A stretch of 62,017 nt of DNA from Opitutales bacterium (GCA_035546135.1 DASZWY010000136.1:1-62017), one strand, 5' to 3'; positions 6,454-49,229 are shown, numbered from the stretch's first letter. Program-made: numbers and translations. The notes: generated by a model from the sequence alone, not told the origin.

Positions 6454-7683
6454 ATGAAAAAGACCGACATCAAACTGGGCCAGTATCTCACGCGCCGGGG
6501 CAAGAAAGGCATCCTGGTGTTCCGCTTCTGGCACGAGAACACGGAATACCTGCGCAGCACGGGCACCGACCTGGCGGACGTGGCCCGCGACCGGGCCTGG
6601 GCGATTTACAACGACATCGTGAACCCGCAGGCCGGCCAGACCCCGCAGCCGCTCTTGCGCAACACGCACGCGACCGCCGGGCAGGTGGCGGACCTGTACC
6701 TCGCGGGCATTTGCCAGCGCGCCACCATCAGCCCGAAATCGGCGGCGCACAACGTGGCGAAGCTGGCGCGGCTCATCACCGAAACGGAGGGGTTTGCCGG
6801 CAAACAGGAGTGGCGCGACGTGCGGGTGAACCAACTGGATGAAGACTTTGTGAACCGCTGGCGGGCGCTCCGCTACGCCGCCAAGGGCCACGCCGGCCCG
6901 GCCAGGGCCGACCTTTGGCTGAACGGCACGCTGAACTCGACGCTGGCGCAGGCCCGCAGCCTTTTTTCGCGCGACGCGTGGAAGCTCTACGAAAAGCTGA
7001 AGATGCCGCCGCGGGACCAGCTGCTCTACGCGCCCCGCCTGGCCGAGCCGGATTACACCTTCGAGGAAATCCCGGCGCACGTGGACGCACGGATGCAATA
7101 CCTCGCGCGGGCGGCGCTCGACGGCAAGCCGGAAGCGGAATCCCCGAGCCAGGCGGTGGCGGTCATTTTCGAGCTGGCGCGGTTTTACGGCCTCACCGGC
7201 TACGAAATGCTGCATGCGCGCTGGGACTGGATGGAGGAGCAGCCGGACGGCTCCCTGGTGCTGGCCATCAAGGCGCGGCCGGCGCGGGACGGCATTCCCG
7301 CCTTCACCACGAAGCGCAACGCGAAGAACCGGCGGCTGGGCCTGAACCGCAGCCAGGTCGAACGTTGGAAAAGGGCGCCCCTCAGTCCATTATGCGCCGC
7401 CAAAGCAGCCAAGAAGAACCGCCAGCCGGACGCCGGCGGTTATATTATCCCCGGCCTGAACCGCGCCGACCGCGAGAGGACGCTGCAACGGGAGGCGAGC
7501 CAATGGGTACGGAAGTTTCTGCCGAACCAGACCAAGACACTGCACGCGCTGCGCGCCCAGGGCGGCAGCGAAGTGCTCAAAAAGTACGACCTCAACACCG
7601 CCGCCGACTGGCTAGGCGACCGCATCGAGACGGCGAAGAAATTCTACCTAGCGCGGCAAGTCGTGGCGGCGCTGGGGGCGTAG
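6454..7683 (+). CDS. int: tyrosine-type site-specific integrase
   Basis: Adjacent to att/tRNA. The C-terminal catalytic signature is visible: LHALRAQGGSEVL (HxxR box) and AKKFYLAR (catalytic Tyr region). ATG 6454 (MKKTDIKLGQYL) is preferred over ATG 6403, which lies inside a 21-bp repeat. Confidence 0.85.
   Translation: MKKTDIKLGQYLTRRGKKGILVFRFWHENTEYLRSTGTDLADVARDRAWAIYNDIVNPQAGQTPQPLLRNTHATAGQVADLYLAGICQRATISPKSAAHNVAKLARLITETEGFAGKQEWRDVRVNQLDEDFVNRWRALRYAAKGHAGPARADLWLNGTLNSTLAQARSLFSRDAWKLYEKLKMPPRDQLLYAPRLAEPDYTFEEIPAHVDARMQYLARAALDGKPEAESPSQAVAVIFELARFYGLTGYEMLHARWDWMEEQPDGSLVLAIKARPARDGIPAFTTKRNAKNRRLGLNRSQVERWKRAPLSPLCAAKAAKKNRQPDAGGYIIPGLNRADRERTLQREASQWVRKFLPNQTKTLHALRAQGGSEVLKKYDLNTAADWLGDRIETAKKFYLARQVVAALGA
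6792..6805. repeat. GTTTGCCGGCAAAC palindrome, perfect copy (inside int, read as GFAGKQ)
   Basis: Read directly from the sequence. Confidence 0.95.
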
Positions 7684-7745
7684 TCTTGGTGGTTTGTCAG
7701 CAAACAGGCTTGACCAAAGAAGCGTAGGCGACAAAAACGCGTAGC

Positions 7746-8033
7746 ATGCAACCACGACTTGCCGACTTGGTGACGCCGCCAATCTATGTCATCAACAATG
7801 ACAACATGGTTATTGTGGTTATTGTGTGTGCGATTGCTCTATTGGCGGCTTTTAGCTTAGGGTGGTATAAGGGTCCAAGCGCGATCTCATGGCTCAAATA
7901 CTGCTGGGTAATCGGATTGCTTTGGACGGGCTGGGTGGCGATTGTGAATGATGTCCATTTTTTGCTCTGCTGGCTTTGGCTAGGCCTCTGCAGCTGGCTG
8001 TTATGCAAAATAGGGAAAAGACAAGGACGGTAA
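7746..8033 (+). CDS. small hydrophobic membrane protein (moron candidate)
   Basis: 95-aa ORF with about three hydrophobic segments (IVVIVCAIALLAAF, VIGLLWTGWVAIV, LLCWLWLGLCSWLL). It lies in a visibly AT-richer island between int and the repressor-like gene. Confidence 0.5.
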   Translation: MQPRLADLVTPPIYVINNDNMVIVVIVCAIALLAAFSLGWYKGPSAISWLKYCWVIGLLWTGWVAIVNDVHFLLCWLWLGLCSWLLCKIGKRQGR

Positions 8034-8052
8034 AAGCGGCGAATAATAGCAA

Positions 8053-9512: not shown

Positions 9513-9553
9513 CCAAACCAGCCCAGCGCGCACACCCCTTTATTTTTTCTGCC

Positions 9554-9784: not shown

Positions 9785-9797
9785 TTTTTTTGCAAAA

Positions 9798-10547
9798 ATG
9801 AACAGCGCGCCGCCATCTTCCAATACCGGGCAAGCCCTGGTCATCACCGCCCCGAACGGGGGTGGCCGTGAGGGGGAATTTTTTATCGGCACCAAGGGCG
9901 AACGCGTGCAGCAATTGACGTTGTTAACGCTAGAGATGGCTAATGAGGTTGAGGCGCTGGAAAAAAGCCGGGCCATCTACACCGCCGACAGGTTATTGAG
10001 CGAGCGTCCCAAGGTTGCCCAATGGTGTCTCACGATGATTGCTGGCGACGTGCCGTGGCGCGTCATCACCGAGCTTACGCACGTCCACCATTACACGCTC
10101 GACGAGCTGGCCCGGCGGTTTCCGGCCGCTGTTGCTGACGAAAGGGCCTCCCTGGGGCGCAGATTTCGACTTGGGGCGCGCATCGCCCTCGAAAGGCTCA
10201 TCGACCGCCTGCCGCACATCCCCATCGAGGAGAGCGCGGACGCGCAACGGATGTCCATTGTGGCCGAAAAGCTGGCGGAAAAGGGGGAGTTACTTTTGGG
10301 CGGAGTGACGCAGCGAACAGAATCTGTCGTGGTCGATGAATGGCGCGAGCTGGCCGCTGTGCTGAAAGAGTTGCCTCGCGCGAATTCAATCGAAGCGCAA
10401 ATCGTCACAGAGACTGGTTCGTGCGGCCAAAAAAGCGCGCCCATTGTGGCGAACGCAGCGGGTCCGGTCCCCAACCTGGGCGGCGACGGTTTGCCGGCAA
10501 ACAAAACCGCGCAGGTGATTGATAATCAACCGGAAATCAATCGTTAA
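9798..10547 (+). CDS. hypothetical protein
   Basis: ATG 9798 (MNSAPPSSNTG) within track ORF 9657..10547. Possible HTH WRVITELTHVHHYTLDELARRF. Function unknown. Confidence 0.5.
   Translation: MNSAPPSSNTGQALVITAPNGGGREGEFFIGTKGERVQQLTLLTLEMANEVEALEKSRAIYTADRLLSERPKVAQWCLTMIAGDVPWRVITELTHVHHYTLDELARRFPAAVADERASLGRRFRLGARIALERLIDRLPHIPIEESADAQRMSIVAEKLAEKGELLLGGVTQRTESVVVDEWRELAAVLKELPRANSIEAQIVTETGSCGQKSAPIVANAAGPVPNLGGDGLPANKTAQVIDNQPEINR
10489..10502. repeat. GTTTGCCGGCAAAC palindrome, perfect copy (read as GLPAN)
   Basis: Read directly from the sequence. Confidence 0.95.
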
Positions 10548-10763
10548 TCATTGAATACCAATGACTTTTATTTACTCAATACGGTTTTTAATACGGTCAC
10601 ACCCCCGAATGCAGGCCGCGTGGCTATACAGGCGTGCAGCATTGTCTCGGTTCCTGGCCGAGGCTCAACAGAGGGGGGGAGGGGGTCGCCAAAACGCGCG
10701 CGGGGGGCGCGAATGCCCACGACCCACCGCCCGAAAAAAATTTACTCAAATGGGAGTCCGGCC

Positions 10764-11294
10764 ATGAACACACCAAACGACATTTCCGAAAAGGACCTCG
10801 CGGCGCTCCTCGGGATGCCGCGCAAAAAGCTGGCCGAGGCACGCACGAAGCTGACCAGCATAACGCACTACCGGCAACAAGGCCGGCTTATCATCTACAC
10901 CCCGGAAGGACAAGCCGCAGTGCAGGCCGCCCTGGTCAAGCCGAGCGAAAACAACACCCCCGCCGCGCCAGCCGACCCCGCCCAGGCGACCCCGCGCGCC
11001 GAAGCCACCGCGCCGCCACGGCTGCTCGTGAAGCCGACCGCAGGGCCGCGCCGCGCACAACTGACCTGCCTACGCACCTTCACCACGAACGAACGAATCC
11101 TCGAAGCCACGGAAGCCGGCAGCGCGACTGTCCTGCGCGTGCGCGTGCGCTCGAACAAGCAATTTCGACCCGGGATGCAATTCAGGGCGGTGCATCTCGA
11201 CGGCACCCTGTGGGCCCTCGACCAGGACTTGCCCCGCAGTCCGCGCGACAACCGTTTTTGGCCGAAAAAAACCACCCCGACGACTTCACCGTGA
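10764..11294 (+). CDS. hypothetical protein, possible N-terminal DNA-binding domain
   Basis: ATG 10764 (MNTPNDISEKDLAALLGMPRKKLAEARTKL) within track ORF 10551..11294. The upstream 216 bp look non-coding (AT-rich repeats). Confidence 0.5.
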   Translation: MNTPNDISEKDLAALLGMPRKKLAEARTKLTSITHYRQQGRLIIYTPEGQAAVQAALVKPSENNTPAAPADPAQATPRAEATAPPRLLVKPTAGPRRAQLTCLRTFTTNERILEATEAGSATVLRVRVRSNKQFRPGMQFRAVHLDGTLWALDQDLPRSPRDNRFWPKKTTPTTSP

Positions 11295-12013
11295 TTCTTA
11301 AAACCAGCTTCCCCAATCACCGCAAAGTTCGCGCCCTGCGCCGCATCACCGGCCGGGACGACAGCGTATTGTGCCTCCTCCGCTTATGGGCGTACGCCGA
11401 AGACAATTTGCGGCTGGAGTTCGACCTGACGCCGGACCAGCTGGAGGACATCTGCGAATGGGAAGGACAGGCCGGGGCGTTTTTCCGGGCGCTGGAACAG
11501 TGCGGCTGGATCGACGTGGATCCCGATGGGCGCTATTGGAGCGTGCATGCCTTCGCCGAGCACAACGGCCGGATGGTCGCCAACTGGACGCGCAACCCCA
11601 ACGGGCGACGCGGAACCCAAGGCGAAGCCAAAGAGAACCCACCCGGAACCCAAGGCGAAGCCACCCTGAACCCAAGGCGAAGCGGTTATATAGGTGATAG
11701 GGGTGATTTAGGAAAGGGATTAGGGGGATTGGGGCCGCAAGGCGGCAAAAAACGCTTTGTTCCCCCGACCCTTCAGGAATGGCGCGCTGAGGCTGTCCTG
11801 GTCGGCTGGAACAGCCCGAGCGACGTTAACGCAGCGTTTCACAGCTTCACCTCGAAGGGCTGGAAGGTCGGGCGTTCGCCGATGGTGAACTGGAAGTCGG
11901 CGGTGTGCACCTGCTTTGAACGTTGGCGCGGGGAAGGTGGGGTTGCGCAAAAAAACAGCCCCCCGACCGCAGAGCCAGGCACCGCCGCCGCCTTCGCCCA
12001 CACCGCGGACTGA
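11291..12013 (+). CDS. replication initiator/organizer-like protein (inferred)
   Basis: GTG start overlapping the upstream stop (GTGA). FPNHRKVRALRRITGRDDSVLCLLRLWAYAEDN and the C-terminal FHSFTSKGWKVGRSPMVNWKSAVCTCFERW resemble phage replisome-organizer/DnaD-like proteins (recalled). Its central linker carries the iteron cluster. Confidence 0.5.
   Translation: MILKTSFPNHRKVRALRRITGRDDSVLCLLRLWAYAEDNLRLEFDLTPDQLEDICEWEGQAGAFFRALEQCGWIDVDPDGRYWSVHAFAEHNGRMVANWTRNPNGRRGTQGEAKENPPGTQGEATLNPRRSGYIGDRGDLGKGLGGLGPQGGKKRFVPPTLQEWRAEAVLVGWNSPSDVNAAFHSFTSKGWKVGRSPMVNWKSAVCTCFERWRGEGGVAQKNSPPTAEPGTAAAFAHTAD
11612..11683. repeat. three in-phase iterons GAACCCAAGGCGAAGC (candidate phage origin)
   Basis: GGAACCCAAGGCGAAGCCA at 11612-11630 and 11645-11663. 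GAACCCAAGGCGAAGC at 11668-11683. The spacings are 33 and 22 bp. A locally AT-rich stretch with GGTGAT repeats follows (11686-11750). Confidence 0.6.
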
Positions 12014-12050: not shown

Positions 12051-13673
12051 ATGACCACCGCTACCCAGTCAGCCCCGCCCGCCGAGAATGCCAGCCGTTT
12101 GCCGGCAAACGCGGCGAAAAAAAGTCCGCCCCCCGCGCCGCAACTGCGGCAGATCCCGCTCGACTGCATCAAGCGGTCGCGCCTGAACCCGCGCAAGGAC
12201 TTCGACAAGGCCGCGCTCCAGGAGCTGGCCGACAGCATCCAGGCCAACGGCGTGTTGCAGCCCATCGTCGTGCGGCGCACCGAGAAGGGCGCGGAGTTCT
12301 ACGAAATCGTCATGGGCGAGCGCCGCCACCGCGCGGCGGAACTGGCCGGGCTGAAGGCGCTGCCGGCGGTGGTGCACGAGGAACTGGCCGACGCGGCCGC
12401 GCTGGAGATGGCGCTGGTGGAAAACTTGCAGCGGCGCGACATGAACGCGATGGAGGAGGCTGAAGGCTTCGCGCGCCTGCAAGAACTCATGGCGAAGGAG
12501 AGCGGCAAGAAGGTGACGCACGACGATTTGGCGGAACGCGTCGGCAAGGCCAGGCCCACGGTGACGAATGCCCTGCGCCTGACCGAATTGTCCGAGGACG
12601 TGCGCGAAACCATCCGCACCGGCAAATTGACCGCGGCGCACGGCCTGGCCTTGTTGAAGTTCAACGCGTGGCCCAAAGTGGTTCAGCTCATTGCCAAACT
12701 CATTTTGACGGAGCACGTCACCGCGGGCCAACTGGAAAAAAATCTGCCTTACGACGTGCGCCGGGCGCTGGACCAGTCGAGGCTGCTATTTGACTGCAAC
12801 GGTTACGAATTCGAAGACCATGACTGGGTAGCCGCGCAAAAGAAAAATCCGGAGAAATTCATTTCGCTGGGCGACACGCTCTATTGCGCCGACGTTCCGT
12901 GGGGCAAACAGCAGATGGCGGAGGCGGAAAAGGCGCGCGCGGCCGCCGCAAAAGCCGCGGCGGAAAAACTCGGTAAGGAAACAGGCAAAAAGGGGAAAGT
13001 CCTCGACCTAGACAAGCTTGAATATGCCGACCGGAAAAAGTGGACCGCTTTGTCGGAGGTGCCCGGCAATTTGCGCGGAGAAATTCCCGTGGAGGTCAAA
13101 TGCGCGGCGACCGAACAATACACCAATAGCGGGAAACCGTTTACGGTCATTCCAACCGGTCTAGCCAATACATTAAAGGCAAAGGCCAATCGCGCCAAAA
13201 CCGGCAAGTTGCGGGCGGAGTCCCAGGTCGTTTTTGCCTGCATTGAAAAGACCTGGGGCGCGACAACGATTTTCGATGGCGCTGCCGCGCTGAAGGACAG
13301 CGCCCTGGTGGTCATGGCGCATGAAATCCTCGGACGCTACTCCGGCAAAATGATCGAAACGGCGGCGGGTGAACTCGGCTTGACGGTCGAACGCGCCGTG
13401 ACAAGCGCGGGCTATGCCTCGGGTGCATACGGCGGCGAAAACAAAGTCCTCGATGCGTTGATGAAACTGGGCGGCCGCAACGCGGTTCGCCTGGCACTAC
13501 GGGTCGTGTTCAACAAGGAAGTCAGCAACGCGCTGGCCTACAAACATGAAAAAATGCCCGCGCGCGTGGAATGGTTCACGGCGAAGGCCGGCGCGGCGCG
13601 CTACCGCAAGGAAGCGGAAAAGCAAGTAAGCGACATCCTCGATTCCGCCAAGAAAGGGGCGAAGAAAAAATGA
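12051..13673 (+). CDS. ParB-family (ParB/Noc/KorB-like) DNA-binding protein, orphan (no ParA)
   Basis: Box I LQELADSIQANGVLQPIVV. Box II EIVMGERRHRAAELAG (GERRxRA CTP-binding motif). HTH THDDLAERVGKARPTVTNALRLTEL. ATG 12051. The ~340-aa C-terminal extension has no motifs I recognise. Confidence 0.85.
   Translation: MTTATQSAPPAENASRLPANAAKKSPPPAPQLRQIPLDCIKRSRLNPRKDFDKAALQELADSIQANGVLQPIVVRRTEKGAEFYEIVMGERRHRAAELAGLKALPAVVHEELADAAALEMALVENLQRRDMNAMEEAEGFARLQELMAKESGKKVTHDDLAERVGKARPTVTNALRLTELSEDVRETIRTGKLTAAHGLALLKFNAWPKVVQLIAKLILTEHVTAGQLEKNLPYDVRRALDQSRLLFDCNGYEFEDHDWVAAQKKNPEKFISLGDTLYCADVPWGKQQMAEAEKARAAAAKAAAEKLGKETGKKGKVLDLDKLEYADRKKWTALSEVPGNLRGEIPVEVKCAATEQYTNSGKPFTVIPTGLANTLKAKANRAKTGKLRAESQVVFACIEKTWGATTIFDGAAALKDSALVVMAHEILGRYSGKMIETAAGELGLTVERAVTSAGYASGAYGGENKVLDALMKLGGRNAVRLALRVVFNKEVSNALAYKHEKMPARVEWFTAKAGAARYRKEAEKQVSDILDSAKKGAKKK
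12097..12110. repeat. GTTTGCCGGCAAAC palindrome, perfect copy (codons 16-20 of the ParB-like gene, RLPAN)
   Basis: Read directly from the sequence. Confidence 0.95.
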
Positions 13674-14228: not shown

Positions 14229-14636
14229 ATGAAAGGCCTTTCCGTCAGACAGCCCTGGGCGACGTTGATTCTGCGCGCCGGGAAAGATATCGAAAACCGC
14301 ACGTGGCCAACGAGGGCGCGGGGTTGGGTGCTGTTGCACGCGTTCCAGGACGCCGGTGATTTCATGGCCATGCACTGTCTTTCATGGTGCGGACTCGCGC
14401 CAGTTGAATTTCCGAAAGGCGCGATTCTGGGCGCAATGAAGATTGACGGCTGCGTTACTGAGTCGAAGTCGCCGTGGTTTGTCGGCCCCTATGGCTACAT
14501 CATCGCCGAGACGCGTATTTTTGCCAAGCCGATCCCCTATACCGGCGCACTTGGCTTTTTCAACGTCGAGCTTTCGCCCGAACTCGGCGTCCAGATTCAA
14601 CTCGCCAATCTTCACAACATCAGGTGGGCCGCATGA
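14229..14636 (+). CDS. ASCH (PUA-like) domain protein
   Basis: LSVRQPWATLILRAGKDIENRTW is the N-terminal ASCH signature. AAGGAG Shine-Dalgarno at 14217-14222. Confidence 0.75.
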   Translation: MKGLSVRQPWATLILRAGKDIENRTWPTRARGWVLLHAFQDAGDFMAMHCLSWCGLAPVEFPKGAILGAMKIDGCVTESKSPWFVGPYGYIIAETRIFAKPIPYTGALGFFNVELSPELGVQIQLANLHNIRWAA

Positions 14637-14848
14637 AAACGAAAAAGCGCAAACGGATTTGCTCTGCCTGCGGCGTCAAGGAAGCCCAGGGGAAAGGCTT
14701 TGCCTACGCGCATTTGTGCCTGAGGTGCCGCAACACCGAGGAGGAGCTGGACGGCCAGCGGCGCGAACACTTCGTGCCCAAAGACGACTTTTCGGCCACC
14801 GGCTGTTACCACACCAAAAAATTTCAACTCCAGGAGGATGCTCGGTGA
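14633..14848 (+). CDS. small zinc-ribbon protein
   Basis: ATGA overlap with the ASCH stop. Two CxxC pairs (CSAC and CLRC). 71 aa. Confidence 0.5.
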   Translation: MKTKKRKRICSACGVKEAQGKGFAYAHLCLRCRNTEEELDGQRREHFVPKDDFSATGCYHTKKFQLQEDAR

Positions 14849-15096
14849 AAAATCCACGACTGGCCGAATTCTACCGACAGCTCCGCGCGCGCGGGGAAAC
14901 GACGGCGACGCTCGCGGCCAAAATCGGCCGCAGCCGGGTGCACCTGACGCACATTTTCAACGGCAGCAAGCGCGGGCGCTTCACGTGGCAGGTGCTGTAT
15001 CCGTTGCTCACCGAAAAAGAGTTGTCCCTTTTATTACAATGTTCCGCGTGGAACGGCACAGACGGCAAACCGCTTGCGCAAAAGGCCACACGATGA
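14845..15096 (+). CDS. small HTH protein
   Basis: GTGA overlap with the upstream stop. AGGAGGA lies 7 nt upstream. HTH-like TTATLAAKIGRSRVHLTHIFNG. The competing frame (ATG 14838) gives Arg-rich low-complexity sequence. Confidence 0.5.
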   Translation: MKNPRLAEFYRQLRARGETTATLAAKIGRSRVHLTHIFNGSKRGRFTWQVLYPLLTEKELSLLLQCSAWNGTDGKPLAQKATR

Positions 15097-17564: not shown

Positions 17565-17583
17565 CTTTCAACCATTGCCCCCC

Positions 17584-23857: not shown

Positions 23858-23909
23858 ATGCCGCCGCCGGCAAAAACTGAACAAAACAACCCTCAGCGGA
23901 CATCATAAT

Positions 23910-25519: not shown

Positions 25520-25545
25520 ACACCAAGCACCAAGGCAACCTTCCC

Positions 25546-36566: not shown

Positions 36567-38363
36567 ATGCGCCCGCACGCCACCTACCCGAACGAAGAAG
36601 GCCCGACGATCGACGGCGACGCGGGCTGGAGCGGCGTGGACCTGCGGCGCGACCCGGGCATCCTGCCGCAAGGGCTGGCGAGCGCCGCGCAAAATCTCGA
36701 GTTCCGCCAGGGCGGCGCGGAGACGCGGCCCAGCTTCGAGACGAAGGCGTGGGGGCAGGACTACGCGCTCGCCAACCTGGAAGACCCGGCGCTGGACTGC
36801 GACGACATTGACTTCGACTTGCCGTGGGGCTTTGGCGAGGTGCTGGGCGCGGAGGATTTCAGCAATCCGAACGGCCAGGACATGGTGCTGTTGGCGGTGA
36901 AAAACGGCGTCTGGAAAATCGTGCCGCACGCGCCACCCGACCTCATCAAAATTGAGGACGGCACAGGCATCCTGACCGGCCCGGTGGAATTCGTGCAATG
37001 CTTCGACCGCGTGGTGATGCTGCGCGGCGAGGGGCTGCCGGATTTGGTGTGGAACCCGGCCCTGGATTTCACCGCCGGCCTCGACGCGTTCCGGCCGGTC
37101 AGCCAGACGGACGCGCGCAATCCGGACCCGGCGAACACGTTTGGCGACGGCACGCAGCCCATTCCGCCCTCGACTTGCGGCGCACTGCTGGGCTCGCGCC
37201 TGTGGTTGGACTTTGCCGGGGACCAGCTCGGCGTGTCGGACATCCTGGACTACACGCGCTTCAGCGCGGCGGAAAGCCAGCTCAGGGCCAATGCCGGCAA
37301 GGCGGACAGCATCGTGGCGCTGCGGCCGCTGGCGGAACAGCAAATGGTGGTGTTCTGCGACGACTCGATTTTCCTGTTCCAGAACGCGGTGGGCGACCTG
37401 TCGACGCTGGTGCAGGCGGTGCTCACCCGGCAGCACGGCCTGGCCGCGCGGCACGCGGTGGCGCAATGGGGCAACGACCTCTGGTTTTTGGCCGGGCGCA
37501 GCCGCGGAGTGTATTCGCTGGGGGCGACGGCGCAGGGCCTGATTCAAGCCGGCGCGGACCCGGTGAGCGCGCCCATCGACCCGCTGCTGCAGCGCGTGAA
37601 CTGGGGCGCGATTGGCGGGGCGTGCGCGGAGTCGCACGACGGCCGCTTCTACCTGGCCGTGCCGCTGGACGGCGCGACGCACAACAACGCGCTGCTGGTT
37701 TACGACGGCCTCAACCAGGCGTGGGCGGGGCTGTGGAACGCGGACTTTCTCGACGTGTACCGGTTTGTGAAAGTGAAAGTCGGCGGCAGCTGGCGGCTGG
37801 CCTGGGTGACGGGCAACAGCAACGCCAACCGCCAATGGCACGGCGCGCTGGTGCACCTCGGCGACGACCTGCAGGATTGGGCGTTTGGCGCGGCGCAGCC
37901 GATTGTCAGCACGCTGACGACGCGCGGCTACGGCGGAGTGCTCAGCGGCAGCCCGGAATGGAAGCGCTTCCTGGCGGCGGACGTCGAGGTGGAGACTTTC
38001 TACCCGCGGCTGACGCTCACCCTGACGGCCAGCGGCCAGCGCGCGCAGACGCTGCTGGACGGCGCGACGCCGAACCGGACCGCCAGCGTGAAGTTTGCCG
38101 GCAAACCGGTGAGCCTCGACAACCACGACGGCCGGCTGGGCTGCGCCGACCGGGCAGACTACGCGGTGCTGACGGGCGACTTTCCGCTGACCTTCGGCGG
38201 CGGCGTGGCCCTCGGGCGCTTCCGCCGCCAAACCCTGCGGCGGCGCGTGCGGGCGCGGGGGCGCTACGCGCAGGTGGCGCTGACCTGCGACCGCGGCGCC
38301 ATGCGGGTGCGCGGCGCCAACCTGCAATTCATCATCACCGACCGGGAGGACGTCTCGCGATGA
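36567..38363 (+). CDS. large virion structural protein (tail tube/nozzle-like by size and position)
   Basis: 598-aa ORF in the tail region. No motif recognised. It contains a perfect palindrome copy. Confidence 0.5.
   Translation: MRPHATYPNEEGPTIDGDAGWSGVDLRRDPGILPQGLASAAQNLEFRQGGAETRPSFETKAWGQDYALANLEDPALDCDDIDFDLPWGFGEVLGAEDFSNPNGQDMVLLAVKNGVWKIVPHAPPDLIKIEDGTGILTGPVEFVQCFDRVVMLRGEGLPDLVWNPALDFTAGLDAFRPVSQTDARNPDPANTFGDGTQPIPPSTCGALLGSRLWLDFAGDQLGVSDILDYTRFSAAESQLRANAGKADSIVALRPLAEQQMVVFCDDSIFLFQNAVGDLSTLVQAVLTRQHGLAARHAVAQWGNDLWFLAGRSRGVYSLGATAQGLIQAGADPVSAPIDPLLQRVNWGAIGGACAESHDGRFYLAVPLDGATHNNALLVYDGLNQAWAGLWNADFLDVYRFVKVKVGGSWRLAWVTGNSNANRQWHGALVHLGDDLQDWAFGAAQPIVSTLTTRGYGGVLSGSPEWKRFLAADVEVETFYPRLTLTLTASGQRAQTLLDGATPNRTASVKFAGKPVSLDNHDGRLGCADRADYAVLTGDFPLTFGGGVALGRFRRQTLRRRVRARGRYAQVALTCDRGAMRVRGANLQFIITDREDVSR
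38093..38106. repeat. GTTTGCCGGCAAAC palindrome, perfect copy (KFAGKP)
   Basis: Read directly from the sequence. The frame was checked against the CDS. Confidence 0.95.
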
Positions 38364-41075: not shown

Positions 41076-42275
41076 ATGCCCTACGCACCCGGAGTTTCCT
41101 ACGAAGGCGGCCAGCTCATCGGCCAAGGCATCCAGGCTTTCGGCCAGAGCCTCGGCGCCGGCATGCAGCAGGGCGAGGCCCTGGCCGAGCGGCTGAAGCA
41201 GTTCCAGCAACAGCAAAAGGAATACGACGACCAGCTCGGCGAGCGCACGGACAAGGCGCGCGCGTTCGCGACAGACTTCCTCGGCGTGCCGGACGGGCAG
41301 GCGGCGGCGATGAGCCTCGGCCAGCTCGAAGGATTGCACGACGCCTACGTGACCCAGGCCGCGCAAAAACTCCAGCAACAGCAAGGCGCGGAAGCGGACG
41401 CCAACACCGCGCTGCTGCAACAGCGGCTGAACCAAAACAACACGGACCAGCAGGCCGTCCAGGACGCCGCCGCCAGCTTTACCGGCGACGGGGACGCCTT
41501 CGTGCAGCGATTGTTGATGGCCGGCTACGACCCGGCCAAGGCGGCGCTGATGCAGGAGCATTTTGACCGGGCGGGCGACCACAATTTCAAGCCGAGCGCG
41601 GGCGCGGTGACGCTGCCGGACGGCTCCAGCGTGCCGTACGTGATGCAGAACCGCGGGCAGGCGCAATTCCTGCCGCCGAAGCCCGCAGCCGCGCAACTGC
41701 CGCCCATCGGCCACACCATCACCGCGGGCGACGGCACCAGCCTGGTGTTCGCGGGCCGCACCGACCCGAAGACGGGGCTGCCCACCTACGAAACCGTGCG
41801 GGAAAACGCGAAGCCGCTGGACCCGCAGGCCGCGCAAATGCTCGGCGGGCAGTACCAGGCGGCGCTGGCGGACGTGCAAAAACTCCAGCAGGCCGGGCCG
41901 CCGCAAAAGGGCATGTTGGGCAGCTGGACCGACGCGGGGCTGGAAAAGGCGACCACCGACTACAACCAAAAGCTGACGGCGGCGAAGTTCAAGGCCAACC
42001 AGCTCGCGGACAGCCTGCAATTCAAAGCGCCCTTTCCGGAGGCGCAACCCCCGACGGCCAAGGGCGGCAAAACGGCGGCGAGCCCGGGCGGTTTGCCGGC
42101 AAACCAAGGCGCGGCCGCGCCGGCCAAGCTCTACCAGGTCACGCCGCAGGGCGTGCAGTTCGCGCCCGGCACGAAGCCGGTGGACGCGCTTCAGCAAATG
42201 GTGGACGACGGCGTCATCTCGCAGGCCGCCGCGCTCCAGCAGCTCCAGCAAATGGGCTACAAGGTCAAGAAATAG
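41076..42275 (+). CDS. Gln/Ala-rich virion protein, internal/ejection-protein candidate
   Basis: 399 aa. It contains a perfect palindrome copy. Function is inferred from position only. Confidence 0.45.
   Translation: MPYAPGVSYEGGQLIGQGIQAFGQSLGAGMQQGEALAERLKQFQQQQKEYDDQLGERTDKARAFATDFLGVPDGQAAAMSLGQLEGLHDAYVTQAAQKLQQQQGAEADANTALLQQRLNQNNTDQQAVQDAAASFTGDGDAFVQRLLMAGYDPAKAALMQEHFDRAGDHNFKPSAGAVTLPDGSSVPYVMQNRGQAQFLPPKPAAAQLPPIGHTITAGDGTSLVFAGRTDPKTGLPTYETVRENAKPLDPQAAQMLGGQYQAALADVQKLQQAGPPQKGMLGSWTDAGLEKATTDYNQKLTAAKFKANQLADSLQFKAPFPEAQPPTAKGGKTAASPGGLPANQGAAAPAKLYQVTPQGVQFAPGTKPVDALQQMVDDGVISQAAALQQLQQMGYKVKK
42091..42104. repeat. GTTTGCCGGCAAAC palindrome, perfect copy (GLPAN)
   Basis: Read directly from the sequence. 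Confidence 0.95.
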
Positions 42276-42278: not shown

Positions 42279-45200
42279 ATGCCCCAACTCGCGGACATGG
42301 TCGAAGCGCCGCCGCGCCTGGCCGACCAGGTGGAGGCGCCCCCATCGCTGGCCGAGGAAGTGACCGCGCCGGATCAACTGCCCGAAAACCCGCAACCGCG
42401 CGTGCTGGTGAAGGCGGCCTACAACGACCCGAACGCGGTGACAAGCTACCAGATGGACAGCGAAGACGTGCCGCACAGCGTGGACAACAGCACGCCGGCC
42501 ATCTACCGCCCGCTCTACGACCAGGCCACGGAGCAAATGCTGGCAGACTGGAAAGCGGGAAAAAAACCGATTGACTGGAGCAAGCTGGACGGCGCGGGCG
42601 TGCTGGGGATGGCGGGATTGCTGATGCAGGCCTACCCCGACGACGCGGCGAAAATCAGCGAGGAGGCGCGGCCCTATGCAAAAGCGATTCTGACCGCGCG
42701 CGGCTTTCCGGATGAGGACGCCAGCACGCTCGCCGGCACCACGCGGCGCTTTGAGGACTTTGCCGGGGCGGCGGGCGGCAGCGCGCTCACCGACCTGGCA
42801 CAAAAGGCCGACCAACTCGCCACCGGCGCGACGCCGCAGGAAGCGGACGAGGCAATGGCGAACGCGTCGATGCTCGCGCGGCAGAACCGCGCGCTGTCCG
42901 CGCTGCAAAACGACGGCGACACCAACTGGCTGAAAACCGCGGGCGTCCTTTTGAGCTGGGCGGCCGGCGCAAACGCCGTGGCGCGCGGGCAGCTGGGCCT
43001 CCGGACCATGGCCGCGCTCGATGCGAGCGGCGCGCCCGTGCTGACCGAAGCCGGCACACCGCTGATGGTGCGCGCGCCGTTTCAATACGCCGTGGATCCA
43101 CTGTCCCTCCAAGGCATCCTGCGCAATGCAGGATTTTCAGCGGCGTACGCGGGCGCGCAGGGGCCAGAATACGTGCCCTCGATGCTGGCGCAAACCTTTG
43201 GCCTGCCGCAGGACCGCGTGAAGTCGGCGTTGGAGGCGGGGGGCCTCGACCTCGTGTTTGGCACGATCCTGCGCGGGCTGCACGGCGGCAGCCAGCTCGA
43301 CCAATGGCGGAAGGCGCCGGCATTTTCCGACCTGGCGGACCTGAACGACAAAGATTTCCAAGCGGCGGCCACGAAACGGGTGCAGGGCGCGCTGGCGGAC
43401 GAACTGGAACGACGCGCCGCTGCGGCGCGACCACCCGGAGCAGCCCCAGCGGACGCTCCCAAGCTCGCCGACCTCGCCGAAGCGCCCGAGGAAGCCACCA
43501 CGCCCGCCGAAGCCCCCGCGCCGGCCGCGGGCGATGCCGAGGCGCAATTCCTCGCCAAGGCCGCGCCGCCGCCCACCGAACCGCCGCCGACCGGCGGCGA
43601 AGCGGACGTGAACCAGTTTTACGATCTGGAGTCCATCACCGACCCGGAAGGCTTCGCCAAGCGACAGGACGTGCAAAAATTGCTGGGCGACTACGGCCTG
43701 ACGGAAGACGAAGTCGCGCGCACCACGGCGGACCGGCGCGCCGAACTGCTGAAGCTGGCGCCGGACGAAGTGAAGCAGCTCTACGCCGCGCAGCGCGAAA
43801 CGGACGCCCAAGAGGCCCTCGCGCGCCAGGCGCGCAGCGACGCGGCCCGCGCCGAATGGGAGCAGCAACAAGCGGCGCAGGCGCAACTCCGCAAGACCGC
43901 CGGCCTCCGGGCGGCCGCCGAGGCCCGCGCGGCCCAAGCCGACGCCGCCGCCAGCCAGGCGGCAAAGGAGGAGGCCTGGCAGCAACAGCAAGACGCGCGC
44001 GCGCAGGCCAGCGAGCCGTTTCACGCAATCCCCGAAGAAGAAATCAGCGACCGGATGGAATACCTGCAGTCCACCGAGCCGGAACACCTGGACGACGCAG
44101 CGCTGCAATGGGGCGCGAACCACGGGCTGGATTGGGCGGCCCAGGCCTTGCGCGAGCGCACGCTGCAAGACCCGATTGTGCGCGCGCAGATGCAGCAGGA
44201 ACACGACGCGGCAGAGCAGGAAAGCGGGGCGGTAGACCTGCTGACCGCCTTGCGCCGCGCGGGCCGCAAACTGCCGAGCCCCCAGCTCGCGCGCGCCCAG
44301 GGCGACCCGATGGCGGGCGAATTGCAAGACCTTTCCGACAGCCTGACTTTCGGCCAGCGGCAGCAAATCTTCGACTACAACCGCTACACCGACCCGGACC
44401 GGGTGCGCGAATCGCTGACGGAAGAAGGCTTCCGCTATGAGACGCCGGCAGAACTGCTGGCCGACGCGATTGACAACGCGCGCGGCTTCGCCCGCACCCA
44501 GGCCGCGCCGATGCTGATGCGGGAGGCCGCGGCGCCCCTTGACGAAACGGCAGAACGTGGTAATATAGGCAGCGATGAACGGCCAACACAGCAAGAACTC
44601 GCCCTGGGCGCGCAGGCCGTCGAGACATTGGGCCACGGTGCGAATGGGCCAACGGAAACGCGGATTGTCCCTGCAACTGGACACGGAATCCACCTGTCTG
44701 AGGGTGAGCCGGCGCGGCCAGGTGCTCACCTTGGCGGGCCCGGCTGGCGCGACGCGCTGCCCTCGTCCATAAAGTGGAAGGGCTACGGACTGGCGCGGCG
44801 GCTGATTGGCGACGGCGTCATCACGTTTACCGGCGAACCAATTCACGGGTGGGACGACCTGGCCGCGCGCGCGCAGGTGTTGCGCAACCCGCTGTTCGAG
44901 ACCTTCTACGCGCTGTTTTTCAAGGACGATACCTTGGCGGGAGTCTATGCCGTATCGAGCCGCGAGCCGTCCATCACGCGCACGCTCGCCCCAGGCGACA
45001 CGCCGGCGACGCTGAAGGCGATGAAGGCCAAGCTGGGCGCAAACGGCTACGCGTTTTTGCACAACCACCCCACGGGCGACGTGCGGCCGAGCCCGACAGA
45101 TGTCGAAACGTCGGAATGGCTGGCGGAGGAAATGGGCGACGGCTACCGCGGCCACATCGTCATCAACCACACGAAATACGCCATCATTTTTCCGAAAGAG

Positions 45201-48200
45201 GACGCGGAAATCGCCATTGAAGTGCGGGCGCTGCCCGGCGCGCGCGGCCGCGACCCGCTGCGGCAGCCGGAAATCAAGCATCCGGCGCTCGGACAAGTGA
45301 TGGCGTTTCCCGACCAAATCGCGCAAGCCGGCAAAGCGATGGAAAGCGGCGGAGACACGGTGACGGCGTTCCTCTTGAACAAGCGCAAGGTCATCAACGC
45401 GGTGGTGCAACTCGCGGTGGACGACCTGACGCGGCCCGGCACTTTTATAGACCTCGGCATGGCGCTGCGCGAATCCGGCGCGCCCGGCGCGGCGCTTTAT
45501 TACGCCGGCCCGCGCGGCGCGGAAGTCAAGCAGGCGGCGCACGACCTGATGCAGCGCGGGTACGTGCACGATTATGCGATTAAAAATGCCGACGGCACGA
45601 TGGATTTTCCCGGCCACGAGGAGTCGCAAAAAGCGGAGGAACGGCGAAACCGGCAGGCGGCAGAAACCACGAGCCTGCGCGTGCAGGAGGACGAAGACCC
45701 CGGCCAATTGGGCGAGTACCAAGCCAACGCGCCGTACCGCGTGGAAGTCAGCGACCAGAAGTGGGCGCCGCTCGAGCTGGGCCACCTGGAGAAGGTGCGG
45801 CCCGTGGAAATGCCGGAGCTGGTGCAGATGATTCGCGCGCTCACCGGCGACTTGCCGGAGCTGCGAAAACTGCCAAAGGCCGATGGGCTGTTCCGCGTCA
45901 GCCCGGCCGGCACGGCGCGCGTGGTGTTGGATCCCCGCATCTTCACGAACGCGGTGGACGCAAGCCGCACCGCGGCCCACGAGCTGGGGCACCTGGTGGA
46001 CTGGTTTCCGTCCGAGGCCGACCAGGGCAAGGGCACCTTGAGCCGGGGCAACATCCTCGGGCACCTGGCCGCGTTGCGGGGATACCTCAAAAACACGCTG
46101 GAGGCGATGCCGAGCGATGAGGCCAAACGGCTAACGCCGGAAGACCGGAAGTTTTTGCGCAACGCCGCAATGAAGAAAGCCGGGCCGCGACCGCCGGGCC
46201 GCCAGCCAGAATTTCTAAAGAGCTGGCAGGACAGGGCCGCGGCGATTTACCGCAGTCTCCTCGAACAAGCCGCCGAAAAACGCGGGCTGCTGCAACGCGA
46301 GGCGGTGACGGAGGAGCTGAAAACCATCACGGAATGGTGGCGGCCCTTCGAGCCGGAGAACGTGCCGGCGTCCTACCTCAAATACCGCTACAGTGCGAAA
46401 GAACTCTACGCCGACGCGCTCTCCGTGCTGTTCAACAGCCCCCAAGACCTCGCGCAGAAAGCGCCGAAGTTCTGGAAATCGTTTTTTGCCTACCTCGACA
46501 AGCGGCCCCAGGCCAAGGCACAACTGTTCGAAACGTGGGAGCTGCTGAACCGCGGCCAGCGGGCCGTGCTGGCGGAGCGCGAACGGATGATCCGGGGCAT
46601 GTTTGCCAGCGGCGAAGAACTGTTCATGCGCAAGTTCGAGGAACGCCGACTGCGGCACAACTCGCTGGCGGGCTGGAAAAGCCGCCTGAAACAGGAATTT
46701 TGGGACCACTATGCGCCCGTGATTGACCGCGCGCGGCAAAAATACGGACACGAACTGGACCAAGTGGGCCAGCCGGCCAAGTTTTACGACGACCCGCGCT
46801 GGATATTTGACGCGCATCCCCTCGCCGCCGGCAACCGCGAGTACATCTTCAGCAGCCGGCTGTTCCACCGCATCGTGCGGCCGCTGGAACGCAGCGGCCT
46901 GACCACACAGCAGCTCGGCGAGTTCATGCTGCACAACCGCATCCTCAACGAAGCCTACGCAGACCAGGCGGGCAACGCCGGCGGCCGCGCGAACCTCGCC
47001 AATCCCCTCGGCCTGACGCCGCTGCAGGCGCGGCAGCACCTGCTGAAGCTGCGGCTCGATTTGGGGATGGAGAAGATGACGGCGCTCGAACGCGCCGCGC
47101 GCGATTTTCAAGACCTGACCTTTGCGGCGACGCGCGAAGCGGTGGACGTGGGCAGCTACCACCGCGAGACCTTCGCCAAAATCGTCGAGCCCAACCGGCG
47201 CAACTACGCCACCTTCGCGGTGCTCGACGGGCTGGAAAACAATCCGCACATCCCCGCCGGCATCCGCGCGCAAACCGGCACGCTGAAGGACATCGCCAAC
47301 CCCTTCACCGCGCAGGTGCTGAAAACCATCACGCTGCTGCGGCTGAACGAACTGCAGCGGGCGAAGAACGCGATGCTCGATGGTTTGGCGGCAAACTTTC
47401 CGGGCGACTTTGCCCGGGCGGAAGTGACGCGGGACGCCACCGGGCGCGCGACGCCGCGGCCGCCGCCGGACGGGCGCGAGCAGCTCATGCGGCTGGTGGA
47501 CGGCCAGCCGGAATACTGGAACACCGACCCCTACATCGCGCGCGCGTTCGAGCGGCTGGTGCCGGCGCAGGCCTCCGCCGCGCTCCAAGCGCTCAACCTG
47601 CCCTGGCAAAAAATCTTTTACCCGCTCGCCATCAAATACAATCCGGCGTTCATGCTGTGGACGGCGCTCTACCGGCATTACATCCAATCGGCGCGCAACC
47701 TCGGCGCGGTGACGCAGGGCCGGGCCGGATTCTGGAAGCTGGCGGGCGCCTACCTGCGCAACTACCAGGCGGCGGCGGCCTATGCGGACGGCAAGGCCCT
47801 GGAAACGGCGGGGGCCGGCATCGTCAACGACATGATGCACAACCAGGCCATCGGCACGCCGCTGGACACGCAGATTTACACCGACGCGCGCAACGACCAC
47901 CTGGAACAATTGCTGGAACGCGCACGCGTGCTGCCCGAGCGCAAGTCGCCGTGGCAGGAGCACAACCTGTTCCGCACGCTGACCTGGCTGCCCCGGCAAA
48001 TCGCGCGGCAGGGGTCCATCCTCGCCGTGCTGCCCAAAGTGGGCGCGTACGACGTTCTCACGAACGAGCTCGGCATGCCGCGCGGGCTGGCGGCAAACGT
48101 GGTGCGAAACTACATCGGCATCCCCAACACGCGGAAGAAAGGCACGTACACCAATATCGCGGCGGTCATCCAGCCGTTTCTCAATGTGGCAATGAAAGGC

Positions 48201-49184
48201 TACGCAGCCGACGCGGCCCTGGCCACCCACCCCAAGACGGCGGCAGGCTGGTGGTATCGGTACGCCATGAGTGACGGCCTGATGCAAATACTGCTGGCCC
48301 TGGCCGCCGCCGGCGTGTTCGGCAAGGCGCTGGAGGAAATGAGCCAAGGCATCGGCGGCCGCGACAAGATGAATTACGCGGCGCTCCCGCTCGGCACCAC
48401 GGAAGGCGGCGAATACGGCCACAAGACCACCGAACTGCGCCTGCCGATGGATCCGAGCGCGAAGGCGATTTCAGGACTGCTGTACTGGACGACCTACAAG
48501 GCGGCGATGACGGCGCAGGGCCGAGCCAGCGCGGCCACACCGCTGCCCAACGCGCTGAATTTCCTGACGGAACAACTGCCGGGCGAAAACCCGACCCTGA
48601 AAATCGCGCAAGCGTGGAAACAATATCTGGGCGGCCAGAACCCGATTGACGACTACCGCGGGCAGCCGATTCTGACCGACAACGAATTTCTGGCCGGCGG
48701 ATGGGACAGCCTGAAACCGATGCTGGCCTGGACCGCCGACGAGGGCGGCGCCAGCTCGTTCTTCCGCTACGACCCGCGGGCAAACACCACGACGGAAACG
48801 GTCGTGGGCGGCGCACCGGTGCTCAGCAGCATCCTCAAATTCACCGACCAGGGTTACCGCGAGCAGCAACAGGCGCAGCAGCTCGCGGATGAAAGCGCCC
48901 ACGCGCGCGCCGTGCTCGATTTGCCGGCCGGCGTGCAGGCGCTTATCCACGAATACGAATACCTCGACCGGGTGAAGGCCGCCGACCGCACGCCGGCGCA
49001 GCAAGAACGCTTCGCGGAACTGGCGGCCTGGCATCACGCGCTCTACGACCGCAGCGGCGGCGGCCCATCGCTGATGCAGCACTACGTGCAGGCGCACAGC
49101 AGCGGCGACACGACCGCGGCGCAGGAGCAGGCCCAGAACCTCGCCGCGTTCAGCGCGGGCTATTTCCCGCAATCCGCACATTGA
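42279..49184 (+). CDS. giant polyvalent virion protein (2301 aa) with JAB/RadC-like and zincin HExxH modules
   Basis: Uninterrupted 6.9-kb ORF. The JAB/MPN-RadC motif FLHNHPTGDVRPSPTDVETS has its first His at residue 928 (nt 45060). The metallopeptidase motif AAHELGHLVDW is at residues 1234-1238 (nt 45978-45992). N-terminal short repeats (LADMVEAPP / LADQVEAPP). A Gln/Ala coiled-coil tract lies near 43800-44000. Confidence 0.8.
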   Translation: MPQLADMVEAPPRLADQVEAPPSLAEEVTAPDQLPENPQPRVLVKAAYNDPNAVTSYQMDSEDVPHSVDNSTPAIYRPLYDQATEQMLADWKAGKKPIDWSKLDGAGVLGMAGLLMQAYPDDAAKISEEARPYAKAILTARGFPDEDASTLAGTTRRFEDFAGAAGGSALTDLAQKADQLATGATPQEADEAMANASMLARQNRALSALQNDGDTNWLKTAGVLLSWAAGANAVARGQLGLRTMAALDASGAPVLTEAGTPLMVRAPFQYAVDPLSLQGILRNAGFSAAYAGAQGPEYVPSMLAQTFGLPQDRVKSALEAGGLDLVFGTILRGLHGGSQLDQWRKAPAFSDLADLNDKDFQAAATKRVQGALADELERRAAAARPPGAAPADAPKLADLAEAPEEATTPAEAPAPAAGDAEAQFLAKAAPPPTEPPPTGGEADVNQFYDLESITDPEGFAKRQDVQKLLGDYGLTEDEVARTTADRRAELLKLAPDEVKQLYAAQRETDAQEALARQARSDAARAEWEQQQAAQAQLRKTAGLRAAAEARAAQADAAASQAAKEEAWQQQQDARAQASEPFHAIPEEEISDRMEYLQSTEPEHLDDAALQWGANHGLDWAAQALRERTLQDPIVRAQMQQEHDAAEQESGAVDLLTALRRAGRKLPSPQLARAQGDPMAGELQDLSDSLTFGQRQQIFDYNRYTDPDRVRESLTEEGFRYETPAELLADAIDNARGFARTQAAPMLMREAAAPLDETAERGNIGSDERPTQQELALGAQAVETLGHGANGPTETRIVPATGHGIHLSEGEPARPGAHLGGPGWRDALPSSIKWKGYGLARRLIGDGVITFTGEPIHGWDDLAARAQVLRNPLFETFYALFFKDDTLAGVYAVSSREPSITRTLAPGDTPATLKAMKAKLGANGYAFLHNHPTGDVRPSPTDVETSEWLAEEMGDGYRGHIVINHTKYAIIFPKEDAEIAIEVRALPGARGRDPLRQPEIKHPALGQVMAFPDQIAQAGKAMESGGDTVTAFLLNKRKVINAVVQLAVDDLTRPGTFIDLGMALRESGAPGAALYYAGPRGAEVKQAAHDLMQRGYVHDYAIKNADGTMDFPGHEESQKAEERRNRQAAETTSLRVQEDEDPGQLGEYQANAPYRVEVSDQKWAPLELGHLEKVRPVEMPELVQMIRALTGDLPELRKLPKADGLFRVSPAGTARVVLDPRIFTNAVDASRTAAHELGHLVDWFPSEADQGKGTLSRGNILGHLAALRGYLKNTLEAMPSDEAKRLTPEDRKFLRNAAMKKAGPRPPGRQPEFLKSWQDRAAAIYRSLLEQAAEKRGLLQREAVTEELKTITEWWRPFEPENVPASYLKYRYSAKELYADALSVLFNSPQDLAQKAPKFWKSFFAYLDKRPQAKAQLFETWELLNRGQRAVLAERERMIRGMFASGEELFMRKFEERRLRHNSLAGWKSRLKQEFWDHYAPVIDRARQKYGHELDQVGQPAKFYDDPRWIFDAHPLAAGNREYIFSSRLFHRIVRPLERSGLTTQQLGEFMLHNRILNEAYADQAGNAGGRANLANPLGLTPLQARQHLLKLRLDLGMEKMTALERAARDFQDLTFAATREAVDVGSYHRETFAKIVEPNRRNYATFAVLDGLENNPHIPAGIRAQTGTLKDIANPFTAQVLKTITLLRLNELQRAKNAMLDGLAANFPGDFARAEVTRDATGRATPRPPPDGREQLMRLVDGQPEYWNTDPYIARAFERLVPAQASAALQALNLPWQKIFYPLAIKYNPAFMLWTALYRHYIQSARNLGAVTQGRAGFWKLAGAYLRNYQAAAAYADGKALETAGAGIVNDMMHNQAIGTPLDTQIYTDARNDHLEQLLERARVLPERKSPWQEHNLFRTLTWLPRQIARQGSILAVLPKVGAYDVLTNELGMPRGLAANVVRNYIGIPNTRKKGTYTNIAAVIQPFLNVAMKGYAADAALATHPKTAAGWWYRYAMSDGLMQILLALAAAGVFGKALEEMSQGIGGRDKMNYAALPLGTTEGGEYGHKTTELRLPMDPSAKAISGLLYWTTYKAAMTAQGRASAATPLPNALNFLTEQLPGENPTLKIAQAWKQYLGGQNPIDDYRGQPILTDNEFLAGGWDSLKPMLAWTADEGGASSFFRYDPRANTTTETVVGGAPVLSSILKFTDQGYREQQQAQQLADESAHARAVLDLPAGVQALIHEYEYLDRVKAADRTPAQQERFAELAAWHHALYDRSGGGPSLMQHYVQAHSSGDTTAAQEQAQNLAAFSAGYFPQSAH

Positions 49185-49215
49185 TTTGGCCTCGACGGGC
49201 GGCAAAAATCAACGG

Positions 49216-49229
49216 GTTTGCCGGCAAAC
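49216..49229. repeat. GTTTGCCGGCAAAC palindrome, perfect copy (intergenic, 32 bp after the last phage gene)
   Basis: Read directly from the sequence. Confidence 0.95.

Follow-up and report, generated by a model that had tools for sequence, protein, structure and literature searches.

Proteins of the ParB family that bind palindromic DNA are known from several systems resembling the one described here, in which a 43.3-kb prophage (delimited by a tRNA-Asn gene and a 40-nt exact direct repeat) carries a dispersed 14-bp palindrome together with a gene for a ParB-family protein (parB). The prophage is located in a contig of an Opitutales metagenome-assembled genome (MAG; GCA_035546135.1 DASZWY010000136.1), the entire 62,017 bp of which is referred to as the window; host DNA was sampled in its flank only. 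KorB of the IncP-1 plasmid RK2 is a ParB-family clamp with cytidine triphosphatase (CTPase) activity and a helix-turn-helix (HTH) domain, and about a dozen operators (OB; palindrome TTTAGCSGCTAAA) are dispersed over a mobile element of 40-60 kb instead of forming one centromere. However, KorB has a ParA partner (IncC) and an IncC-interacting peptide, KorB-specific domains, and a clamp lock (KorA), and belongs to a plasmid, whereas the system in the window is on an integrating tailed phage, with most sites in coding sequence and no conserved small partner. Noc of Firmicutes is a ParA-less ParB paralogue with CTP-dependent nucleation at many dispersed sites (ATTTCCCGGGAAAT) derived from parS through a small number of base changes, but is a host cell-division factor and not a phage protein. 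Chromosomal ParB (Spo0J) shares the N-terminal and HTH domains and a site within parB, but has a few parS sites near oriC, in contrast to approximately one per 3 kb across the whole replicon here. The genome of phage N15 also contains several separate ParB-family palindromes (IR1-4); nevertheless, the N15 prophage is extrachromosomal, depends on partition, and encodes SopA, its SopB is a type Ia plasmid ParB, and there are four sites against approximately 15. On the other hand, the stoperators of Cluster A mycobacteriophages are numerous protein-binding words of 13-14 bp across a temperate phage genome, genes included; they are asymmetric and orientation-biased, and are bound by the immunity repressor to block transcription in the lysogen.

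A PNAS 2025 survey (PMC12704722) found ParA-less proteins with the ParB-CTPase fold to be common on prophages, with no role assigned, and the passages of it consulted here describe no cognate DNA sites. No account of genome-wide ParB sites in integrating phages was found in our searches of the literature. Our comparison of sequences suggests that the family word of the prophage, GTTYGCCGGCRAAC, is very probably a private parS-type site read by the phage's own ParB. The locus would then represent a KorB/Noc-style multi-site ParB system on an integrating tailed phage, with a private, lineage-specific site code, and orphan prophage ParBs would gain a concrete predicted DNA target and a rule linking recognition residues to the site.

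The 14-bp perfect palindrome GTTTGCCGGCAAAC occurred eight times in the window (0 expected from 100 shuffles). When up to two mismatches were allowed, 15 sites were obtained (0.65 expected), none of them outside 6792-49229. The sites of relatives (see below) gave the family consensus GTTYGCCGGCRAAC, with T or C at position 4 and A or G at position 11, and 14 prophage sites were within one mismatch of this consensus, against 0.14 expected (P=8e-24; first-order Markov model). The GTTYGCCGGCRAAC-type word also topped the list in an unbiased scan for palindrome families, with 13 members, whereas simulated sequences reached at most two. Conservation was confined to exactly 14 bp, and the flanks around the sites were not conserved. 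No site at two or fewer mismatches was detected in the host flank (18,745 bp of the window), in which approximately 6.5 would be expected at the prophage density (probability of zero, approximately 0.0015 by our own arithmetic). The site density was approximately one per 3 kb; the largest gap (7.0 kb) was close to the value that we estimate for random placement (approximately 9.5 kb), and, therefore, we do not claim regular phasing. The original prediction, made on this DNA alone, had listed the eight perfect copies and five variants as restricted to the element, and their sequences, coordinates, reading frames, and gene positions were all reproduced. Two sites were added to this list (25991-26004 and 44825-44838, with one and two mismatches, respectively). 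The putative relics at 19679 and 48085 exist, but have three mismatches each and fall outside the set used here, and the proposed spacer variant at 34389 (TTTGCCGCCGCAAAC) is present but weak.

Among the perfect sites, that at 6792..6805 is inside the open reading frame (ORF) 6403-7683 (FAGK frame), that at 10489..10502 is in the 3' end region of ORF 9657-10547 (LPAN frame), 132 bp upstream of a replication-initiator-like gene, and that at 12097..12110 occupies codons 16-20 of parB itself (+46), a segment modeled as disordered. The others are found at codon 6 of a DnaQ-like exonuclease gene (17591..17604), toward the 3' end of ORF 35147-36190 (36129..36142), in ORF 36567-38363, which has a weak PHROG match to a head-closure protein (38093..38106), toward the 3' end of ORF 41076-42275 (42091..42104), and between genes, 32 bp past the last gene and 178 bp before the right attachment site, attR (49216..49229). 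Single-mismatch sites are GTTTGCCTGCAAAC (24592..24605; in ORF 24216-24770), GTTTGCCGCCAAAC (25991..26004; 12 bp before the end of ORF 24958-26016), and GTTTGGCGGCAAAC (47383..47396; in an ORF of 2301 aa). GTTCGCCGGCAAAC (29145..29158; in ORF 27854-29356, upstream of the major capsid gene) and GTTTGCCGGCGAAC (32057..32070; in ORF 31539-32489) fit the consensus GTTYGCCGGCRAAC. The remaining two are GTTTGTCAGCAAAC, with two mismatches (7692..7705; intergenic, directly past the stop codon of ORF 6403-7683), and GTTTACCGGCGAAC, with two mismatches to GTTTGCCGGCAAAC but one to the consensus (44825..44838; in the 2301-aa ORF). In an excised circle, the sites at 49216, 6792, and 7692 would form a cluster of approximately 1.7 kb around attP.

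The intragenic sites were translated in two different frames (LPAN and FAGK/E types). Amino acid frequencies predict 0.35 occurrences of the peptide LPAN in the phage proteome; six were found, five of which were spelled TTG-CCG-GCA-AAC, for which the probability given the peptide is 0.0044 each. TTG and GCA account for only 12% of Leu and 8% of Ala codons, respectively. The use of two reading frames together with this rare-codon spelling indicates selection on the DNA word. Approximately eight of the 13 intragenic sites were within the first or last 15% of the gene (binomial P approximately 0.02, our own arithmetic), and the pattern is consistent with a DNA word placed where proteins tolerate insertion; a DNA-binding code can thus overlie coding sequence at the price of rare codons. 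Positions 4 and 11 of the half-sites were paired as C/A (6), C/G (6), T/G (5), and T/A (13), and this independent variation suggests two half-sites read by a dimer and argues against a hairpin in RNA or DNA. It is scarcely credible that the word is no protein site at all, but a repeat found throughout the host, a peptide motif that recurs, or a hairpin formed by long plus-strand transcripts. With a single exception, the predicted phage genes are on the plus strand, so that the word is indeed transcribed, and the host DNA in view is an 18.7-kb flank of the host genome. However, that flank contains zero copies, the peptide motif is ruled out by the two frames and rare codons, and the hairpin by the lack of compensatory change at positions 4 and 11, at which C/A pairs are as frequent as C/G; furthermore, the predicted stem is just 5 bp, and the same word is found in unrelated phages from other samples, including one site in a minus-strand gene (position 4458 of locus L122).

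Contigs encoding the nearest long ParB homologues were fetched and scanned for GTTYGCCGGCRAAC. In the first round, the word was found in L004 (encoding P0002; two sites) and L122/L123 (P0007; four sites), the ParBs of which have a recognition helix like that of the window ParB (P0001), and no site was found in L001-L003 or L124. From the helix alone, and prior to any retrieval of the DNA, carriage was predicted for the contigs of P0008 and P0011, but not for that of P0017; two sites were found in L125 (P=2e-4), two in L126 (P=4e-4), and none in L127. Among 55 ParB-relative loci in IMG/VR, the full ParB signature (Arg at Caulobacter position 173, ANALR, and AHG[LIV]) was present in only one (L129), which has one site with a single mismatch. 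A signature-directed search led to L305 (ANVLR in place of ANALR), which belongs to the same viral contig (37 kb) as L251; the two combined have five sites, one of them in the N-terminal part of parB. All six other phage loci with the signature, therefore, carry GTTYGCCGGCRAAC (one to five sites each; most with P of 1e-4 to 1e-7 each), and the word co-occurred with only one class of ParB recognition helix across seven independent phage contigs, the window included. Searches of genome and viral collections with single proteins of the locus yielded no more than two distant loci from MAGs, neither of which has the word. In an IMG/VR scan for exact GTTTGCCGGCAAAC, 117 stretches were obtained with one copy each, further copies were at the chance level, and none encoded a ParB; since these are single copies without ParB, we regard them as chance background.

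Jalal et al. (2020) reported that Arg173 hydrogen-bonds with G1 of parS, while Gln173 reads A1 of the Noc-binding site (NBS), that residue 201 reads position 6, and that Q162, G170, K171, S172, N178, and R204 make general contacts. When 68 ParB-encoding phage loci were classed by residue 173, the 15 loci with Arg (295 kb) contained 28 G-initial words and no A-initial word, the 16 loci with Gln (241 kb) contained one G-initial and eight A-initial words (ATTYCGCGCGRAAT), and the 37 loci with other ParB classes (574 kb) contained neither. In this comparison, site and recognition residues co-varied across phages, and the switch of the first palindrome base from G to A with the change from Arg to Gln at position 173 matches the published ParB/Noc code. 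Relative to canonical parS (GTTTCACGTGAAAC), the word is altered only at half-site positions 5 and 6 and retains G1-T2-T3-T4 and C7 (10 of 14 bases shared), and the window ParB retains Arg173 and has an altered 201-204 segment. Canonical parS itself is carried by L132, the ParB of which is of the chromosomal type (R173, G201, and R204), and by L135 (no HTH aligned). The ATTYCGCGCGRAAT sites are located in L003 (5953 and 10231), L128 (1612), L138 (5010), and L131 (10011, 12345, and 12523), and an A-initial variant (ATTTCTCGTGAAAT) is found at 6056 of L124; A-initial copies are often at the start of parB. Several lineages have a site at the 5' end of parB or just within it (+46 in the window, +13 in L003, +12 in L124, and -34 in L126), which echoes the position of parS in chromosomal parB genes, which also contain it.

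Other repeats were noted at some of these loci. Four copies of TCATCCGGATGA within 220 bp (4099-4318) of L004, in the gene directly upstream of parB, resemble an iteron array or replication origin. Two more palindromes specific to their lineages are GTTYGCGCGCGAAC, which occurs twice in L306 (2203 and 6908), and CGGGCAATTGCCCG, which occurs three times in L001 (5436, 5460, and 8457), in both cases near a divergent ParB.

Alternatively, another factor (a phage repressor, a restriction enzyme or methyltransferase with the target GCCGGC, or a host protein) may read the palindrome, with ParB as a fellow traveler. GCCGGC is a common restriction target, Cluster A mycobacteriophages have dispersed repressor sites, and a few viral stretches contain two or three copies of the word with no ParB in view. 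Against this, the word is built like parS and NBS in its 14-bp length and GTTY/RAAC arms, the G1/A1 switch follows ParB residue 173, and ParB is the sole protein common to all word-positive loci. In addition, phages usually avoid restriction sites and do not accumulate them, and the word is a perfect palindrome without orientation that tracks ParB recognition residues, unlike stoperators. We consider this explanation to be very unlikely, and a site of the phage's own ParB is strongly preferred.

The window ParB was matched by Pfam models for ParB_N (PF02195; 2.4e-31) and HTH_ParB (PF17762; 2e-19). It passed the cut-off of TIGR00180 (153.4 bits; cut-off, 58.45), but not that of the Noc model TIGR04285 (168.7 bits; cut-off, 315). 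The first 230 residues were 40-55% identical to chromosomal ParBs, and the best sequence matches in PDB were the ParBs of Myxococcus xanthus (E=4e-38), Thermus thermophilus, and Bacillus subtilis, much nearer than KorB (E=4e-12); Pfam gave no match to a KorB-specific domain. The CTP-binding motifs GERRHRA (residues 89-95) and ENLQR (124-128) are intact, and their columns were invariant across 16 aligned sequences, except for H93, L126, and Q127. Based on the alignment with T. thermophilus and M. xanthus ParB, the numbering corresponds to that of Caulobacter minus 5, and the recognition residues R168, A174, E179, and A196 (in addition to N173 and L199) are equivalent to Caulobacter 173, 179, 184, and 201, respectively. 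Among the contact residues (Caulobacter numbering), G170, K171, R173, and N178 are retained, as in chromosomal ParB, while G201 and R204 are replaced by Ala and Leu; the corresponding set in Noc is Q173/K179/K184/R201, in contrast to R/A/E/A here.

A ParA partner was not detected. Neither KGGxGK[ST] nor a Walker A motif of ParA was present in six frames of the window, no ParA family was returned by Pfam, PHROG, and NCBIfam scans, and the ParA-activating peptide (L/F/I)G(K/R)G(L/F/I) (LG[KR]GL type) was not found in the 540 aa of the window ParB, although chromosomal homologues (e.g., P0006) have it. The C-terminal dimerization domain PF23552 of chromosomal ParB is also missing. The window ParB is, therefore, a chromosomal-type ParB with a CTPase fold and HTH, but without a ParA partner, and the lack of ParA agrees with the original prediction. 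In the AlphaFold2 (AF2) model (mean predicted local distance difference test (pLDDT) score, 82.6), the C-terminal region is helical, with a final long helix and a Lys-rich tail, and, when the model was compared with PDB by Foldseek, the hits (Noc, ParB, and KorB) were confined to its N-terminal ParB portion. Noc depends on an amphipathic membrane-targeting helix at its N-terminus, whereas residues 1-30 of the window ParB are Pro/Ala-rich and residues 1-26 were modeled as disordered (pLDDT <50) with no helix; the suggested Noc-like membrane tethering, accordingly, found no support. A role as an activator of thymine dioxygenase was also rejected: the ParBs that activate phage thymine dioxygenases (PNAS 2026; PMC13229309) have no DNA-binding domain and are paired with a 5mYOX enzyme, whereas the HTH is intact here and no dioxygenase family was found in Pfam scans of the ORFs tested.

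A similar arrangement was found in two cultured phages. Acidovorax phage Aval (L307) contains GTGCACACGTGTGCAC five times (5488, 7662, 13369, 20625, and 38568; 0.08 expected) and Variovorax phage VarioGold (L308) contains GTGCAGACGTSTGCAC six times (5756, 15561, 21002, 29452, 31899, and 37753; 0.17 expected); these dispersed 16-bp palindromes fit GTGCA(C/G)ACGT(G/C)TGCAC. Both phages have a long ParB in a leftward early operon, with no ParA annotated in either record, and in each, one palindrome is inside parB and one just downstream of the capsid gene. Both are integrative temperate phages, VarioGold with a tyrosine recombinase and annotated attP and Aval with an integrase gene. The palindromes are not mentioned in the VarioGold paper. 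Being cultured, inducible, and integrative, these phages are suitable for direct testing.

The helix-class co-occurrence, the G1/A1 code, and the intact CTP motifs support the original prediction that the phage loads its own ParB at the palindromes, and the absence of ParA and of a ParA-binding peptide is consistent with it. By analogy with the biochemistry of ParB, Noc, and KorB, a ParB dimer would read the two half-sites, bind CTP, close as a clamp, and slide off the site. Given binding, such spreading is likely, and the two taken together are rather probable. With approximately 15 sites, one per approximately 3 kb (largest gap, 7 kb), the whole phage genome and little else would be loaded with clamps. 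The clamps may act mainly after induction or infection, which is favored because parB is in a replication/early module, both here and in the cultured relatives. Their purpose may be to organize or compact phage DNA and mark it as distinct from host DNA, although we propose an organizing or compacting role only tentatively and rate it at somewhat below even; self-regulation of parB through the site in its own 5' end is also possible. Compaction and self-marking are, thus, retained from the roles proposed originally, whereas a role in the lysogen appears to be doubtful in view of the early lytic operon in the cultured relatives. If the sites do load CTP-dependent clamps genome-wide, multi-site ParB biology of the KorB/Noc type, familiar in plasmids and chromosomes, would extend to tailed phages, and orthogonal ParB/parS pairs for DNA labeling would be available as a natural series.

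The same ParB may instead be a KorB-like global regulator, the clamps of which slide to promoters and repress them, perhaps locked by a small partner, for silencing or for early/late timing. This alternative deserves consideration, although we regard it as less probable than the organizing role. The density of one site per 3 kb is near that of the 12 KorB sites of RK2, KorB, a CTP clamp, represses promoters at distances of up to 1.5 kb, one site is inside the 5' end of parB and three surround attP and ORF 6403-7683, and an ORF with a weak HTH_31 match directly follows parB. However, that ORF was not kept in relatives, no KorA-like partner was conserved across word-positive loci, and the KorB-specific domain is absent; most sites are deep within late structural genes, and the position of parB in an early lytic/replication operon makes its production in a lysogen unlikely. 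No site overlapped a promoter-like element, and none was associated with promoters or terminators, in a consensus scan of 6.2-26.1 kb, which is weak evidence because host promoters may differ from the consensus.

On the other hand, the sites may be centromeres of an episomal (pseudolysogenic or replicating) form of the phage, with ParB relying on the ParA of the host or on a different motor. In N15, SopB binds IR centromere sites at four separate places, and host partners might recognize an N-terminal half that is 40-55% identical to chromosomal ParBs. Nevertheless, this is highly improbable: the window has no ParA gene or Walker motif and its ParB no LG[KR]GL peptide, the element is integrated (tRNA and att repeats), as is expected also of VarioGold (recombinase and attP) and Aval (integrase), and 15 sites are far beyond what a centromere needs.

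Several points weigh against reading the word as a loading site of a ParB clamp. The link between word and ParB rests on comparison throughout, and the host sample is limited to the 18.7-kb flank. R204, a DNA contact conserved in ParB and Noc, is Leu in the window ParB, and the catalytic Gln of M. xanthus ParB (Q52) corresponds to Asn46 (codon 12186-12188). Asn was also found at this position in all 12 aligned long homologues, and, because of this replacement, the CTPase cycle may be slower or altered. The C-terminal 316 aa matched only themselves among 1.84 billion representative proteins, and, since PF23552 is absent, clamp formation would rest on an uncharacterized C-terminal dimerization module. 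The sites show no promoter-like association and, hence, give no help on function. Two to three copies of GTTCGCCGGCGAAC were present in L196, L198 (1886, 7154, and 9270), L205, and L250, with no ParB in the fetched piece; these are among the IMG/VR matches listed, their contigs are incomplete, and the multi-copy excess over chance is small. In both L205 and L250, two GTTCGCCGGCGAAC copies are exactly 2105 bp apart, and these loci are probably of the same phage type. Moreover, no palindrome family was found in a scan of Gordonia phage Schnabeltier, which has a ParB-like protein (gp54), and the arrangement is, therefore, not universal.

A more general proposal, which we consider to be unlikely as it stands, is that many temperate tailed phages combine a lineage-specific parS-like palindrome in 5-15 copies with a ParA-less ParB-CTP clamp that reads its own word, such that, upon infection or induction, phage DNA alone is covered by clamps and drawn together into a condensate. 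GTTYGCCGGCRAAC, ATTYCGCGCGRAAT, and GTGCASACGTSTGCAC may be lineage words of such a ParB code. If true, the ParB condensate would be a self-marked compartment for replication or packaging, or a shield against host nucleases and SMC-type defenses, which would be a use of the CTP switch new to virus biology.

Regarding the element itself, the tRNA-Asn gene is located at 6140-6214 on the minus strand. The attL core (6175..6214), a 40-nt exact repeat, corresponds to the 5' half of this gene, and the second copy forms the attR core (49407..49446); the duplicated segment extends from the anticodon loop to the 5' end of tRNA-Asn, and the prophage adjoins the 5' side of the gene. The plus-strand parB (12051..13673; 540 aa, ParB_N and HTH_ParB) is directly preceded by the replication-initiator-like gene (10634..12013, plus strand; weak PHROG match) and followed by genes for a small ASCH-like protein (14229..14636, plus strand; phrog_3193, with a weak Pfam ASCH match) and a primase/helicase (14838..17225, plus strand), which places it in the early replication module. 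Other recognizable products are the DnaQ-like exonuclease (17575-18225), an SU10-type major capsid protein (29392-30417), a tail-fiber-like protein, and the 2301-aa protein, and no cultured phage matched the structural region in a near-identity search at the DNA level. ORF 6403-7683 (426 aa) had previously been called an integrase. Integration is supported by the tRNA and att repeats, but this label was not corroborated, with no match in Pfam, PHROG, or NCBIfam and no meaningful sequence match in PDB; the ORF may encode a divergent or novel recombinase. The ASCH-like phrog_3193 protein recurs on the ParB contigs L001-L004, L122/L123, and L126, both word-positive and word-negative, and is a possible, though not word-specific, ParB accessory; the PNAS 2025 survey (PMC12704722) describes fusions of ParB to PUA-like domains.

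Three further repeats are found in the prophage. The 12/18-nt periodic repeat GGCTATGGCGATGGCTCT... at 23894-24145 (ORF 23790-24116) gives a small protein composed almost entirely of GYGDGS-type units. A 33-nt tandem duplication is inside the replication-initiator-like gene (11608-11673), and a 114-nt repeat with 75% identity is inside ORF 27854-29356 (28255-28491).

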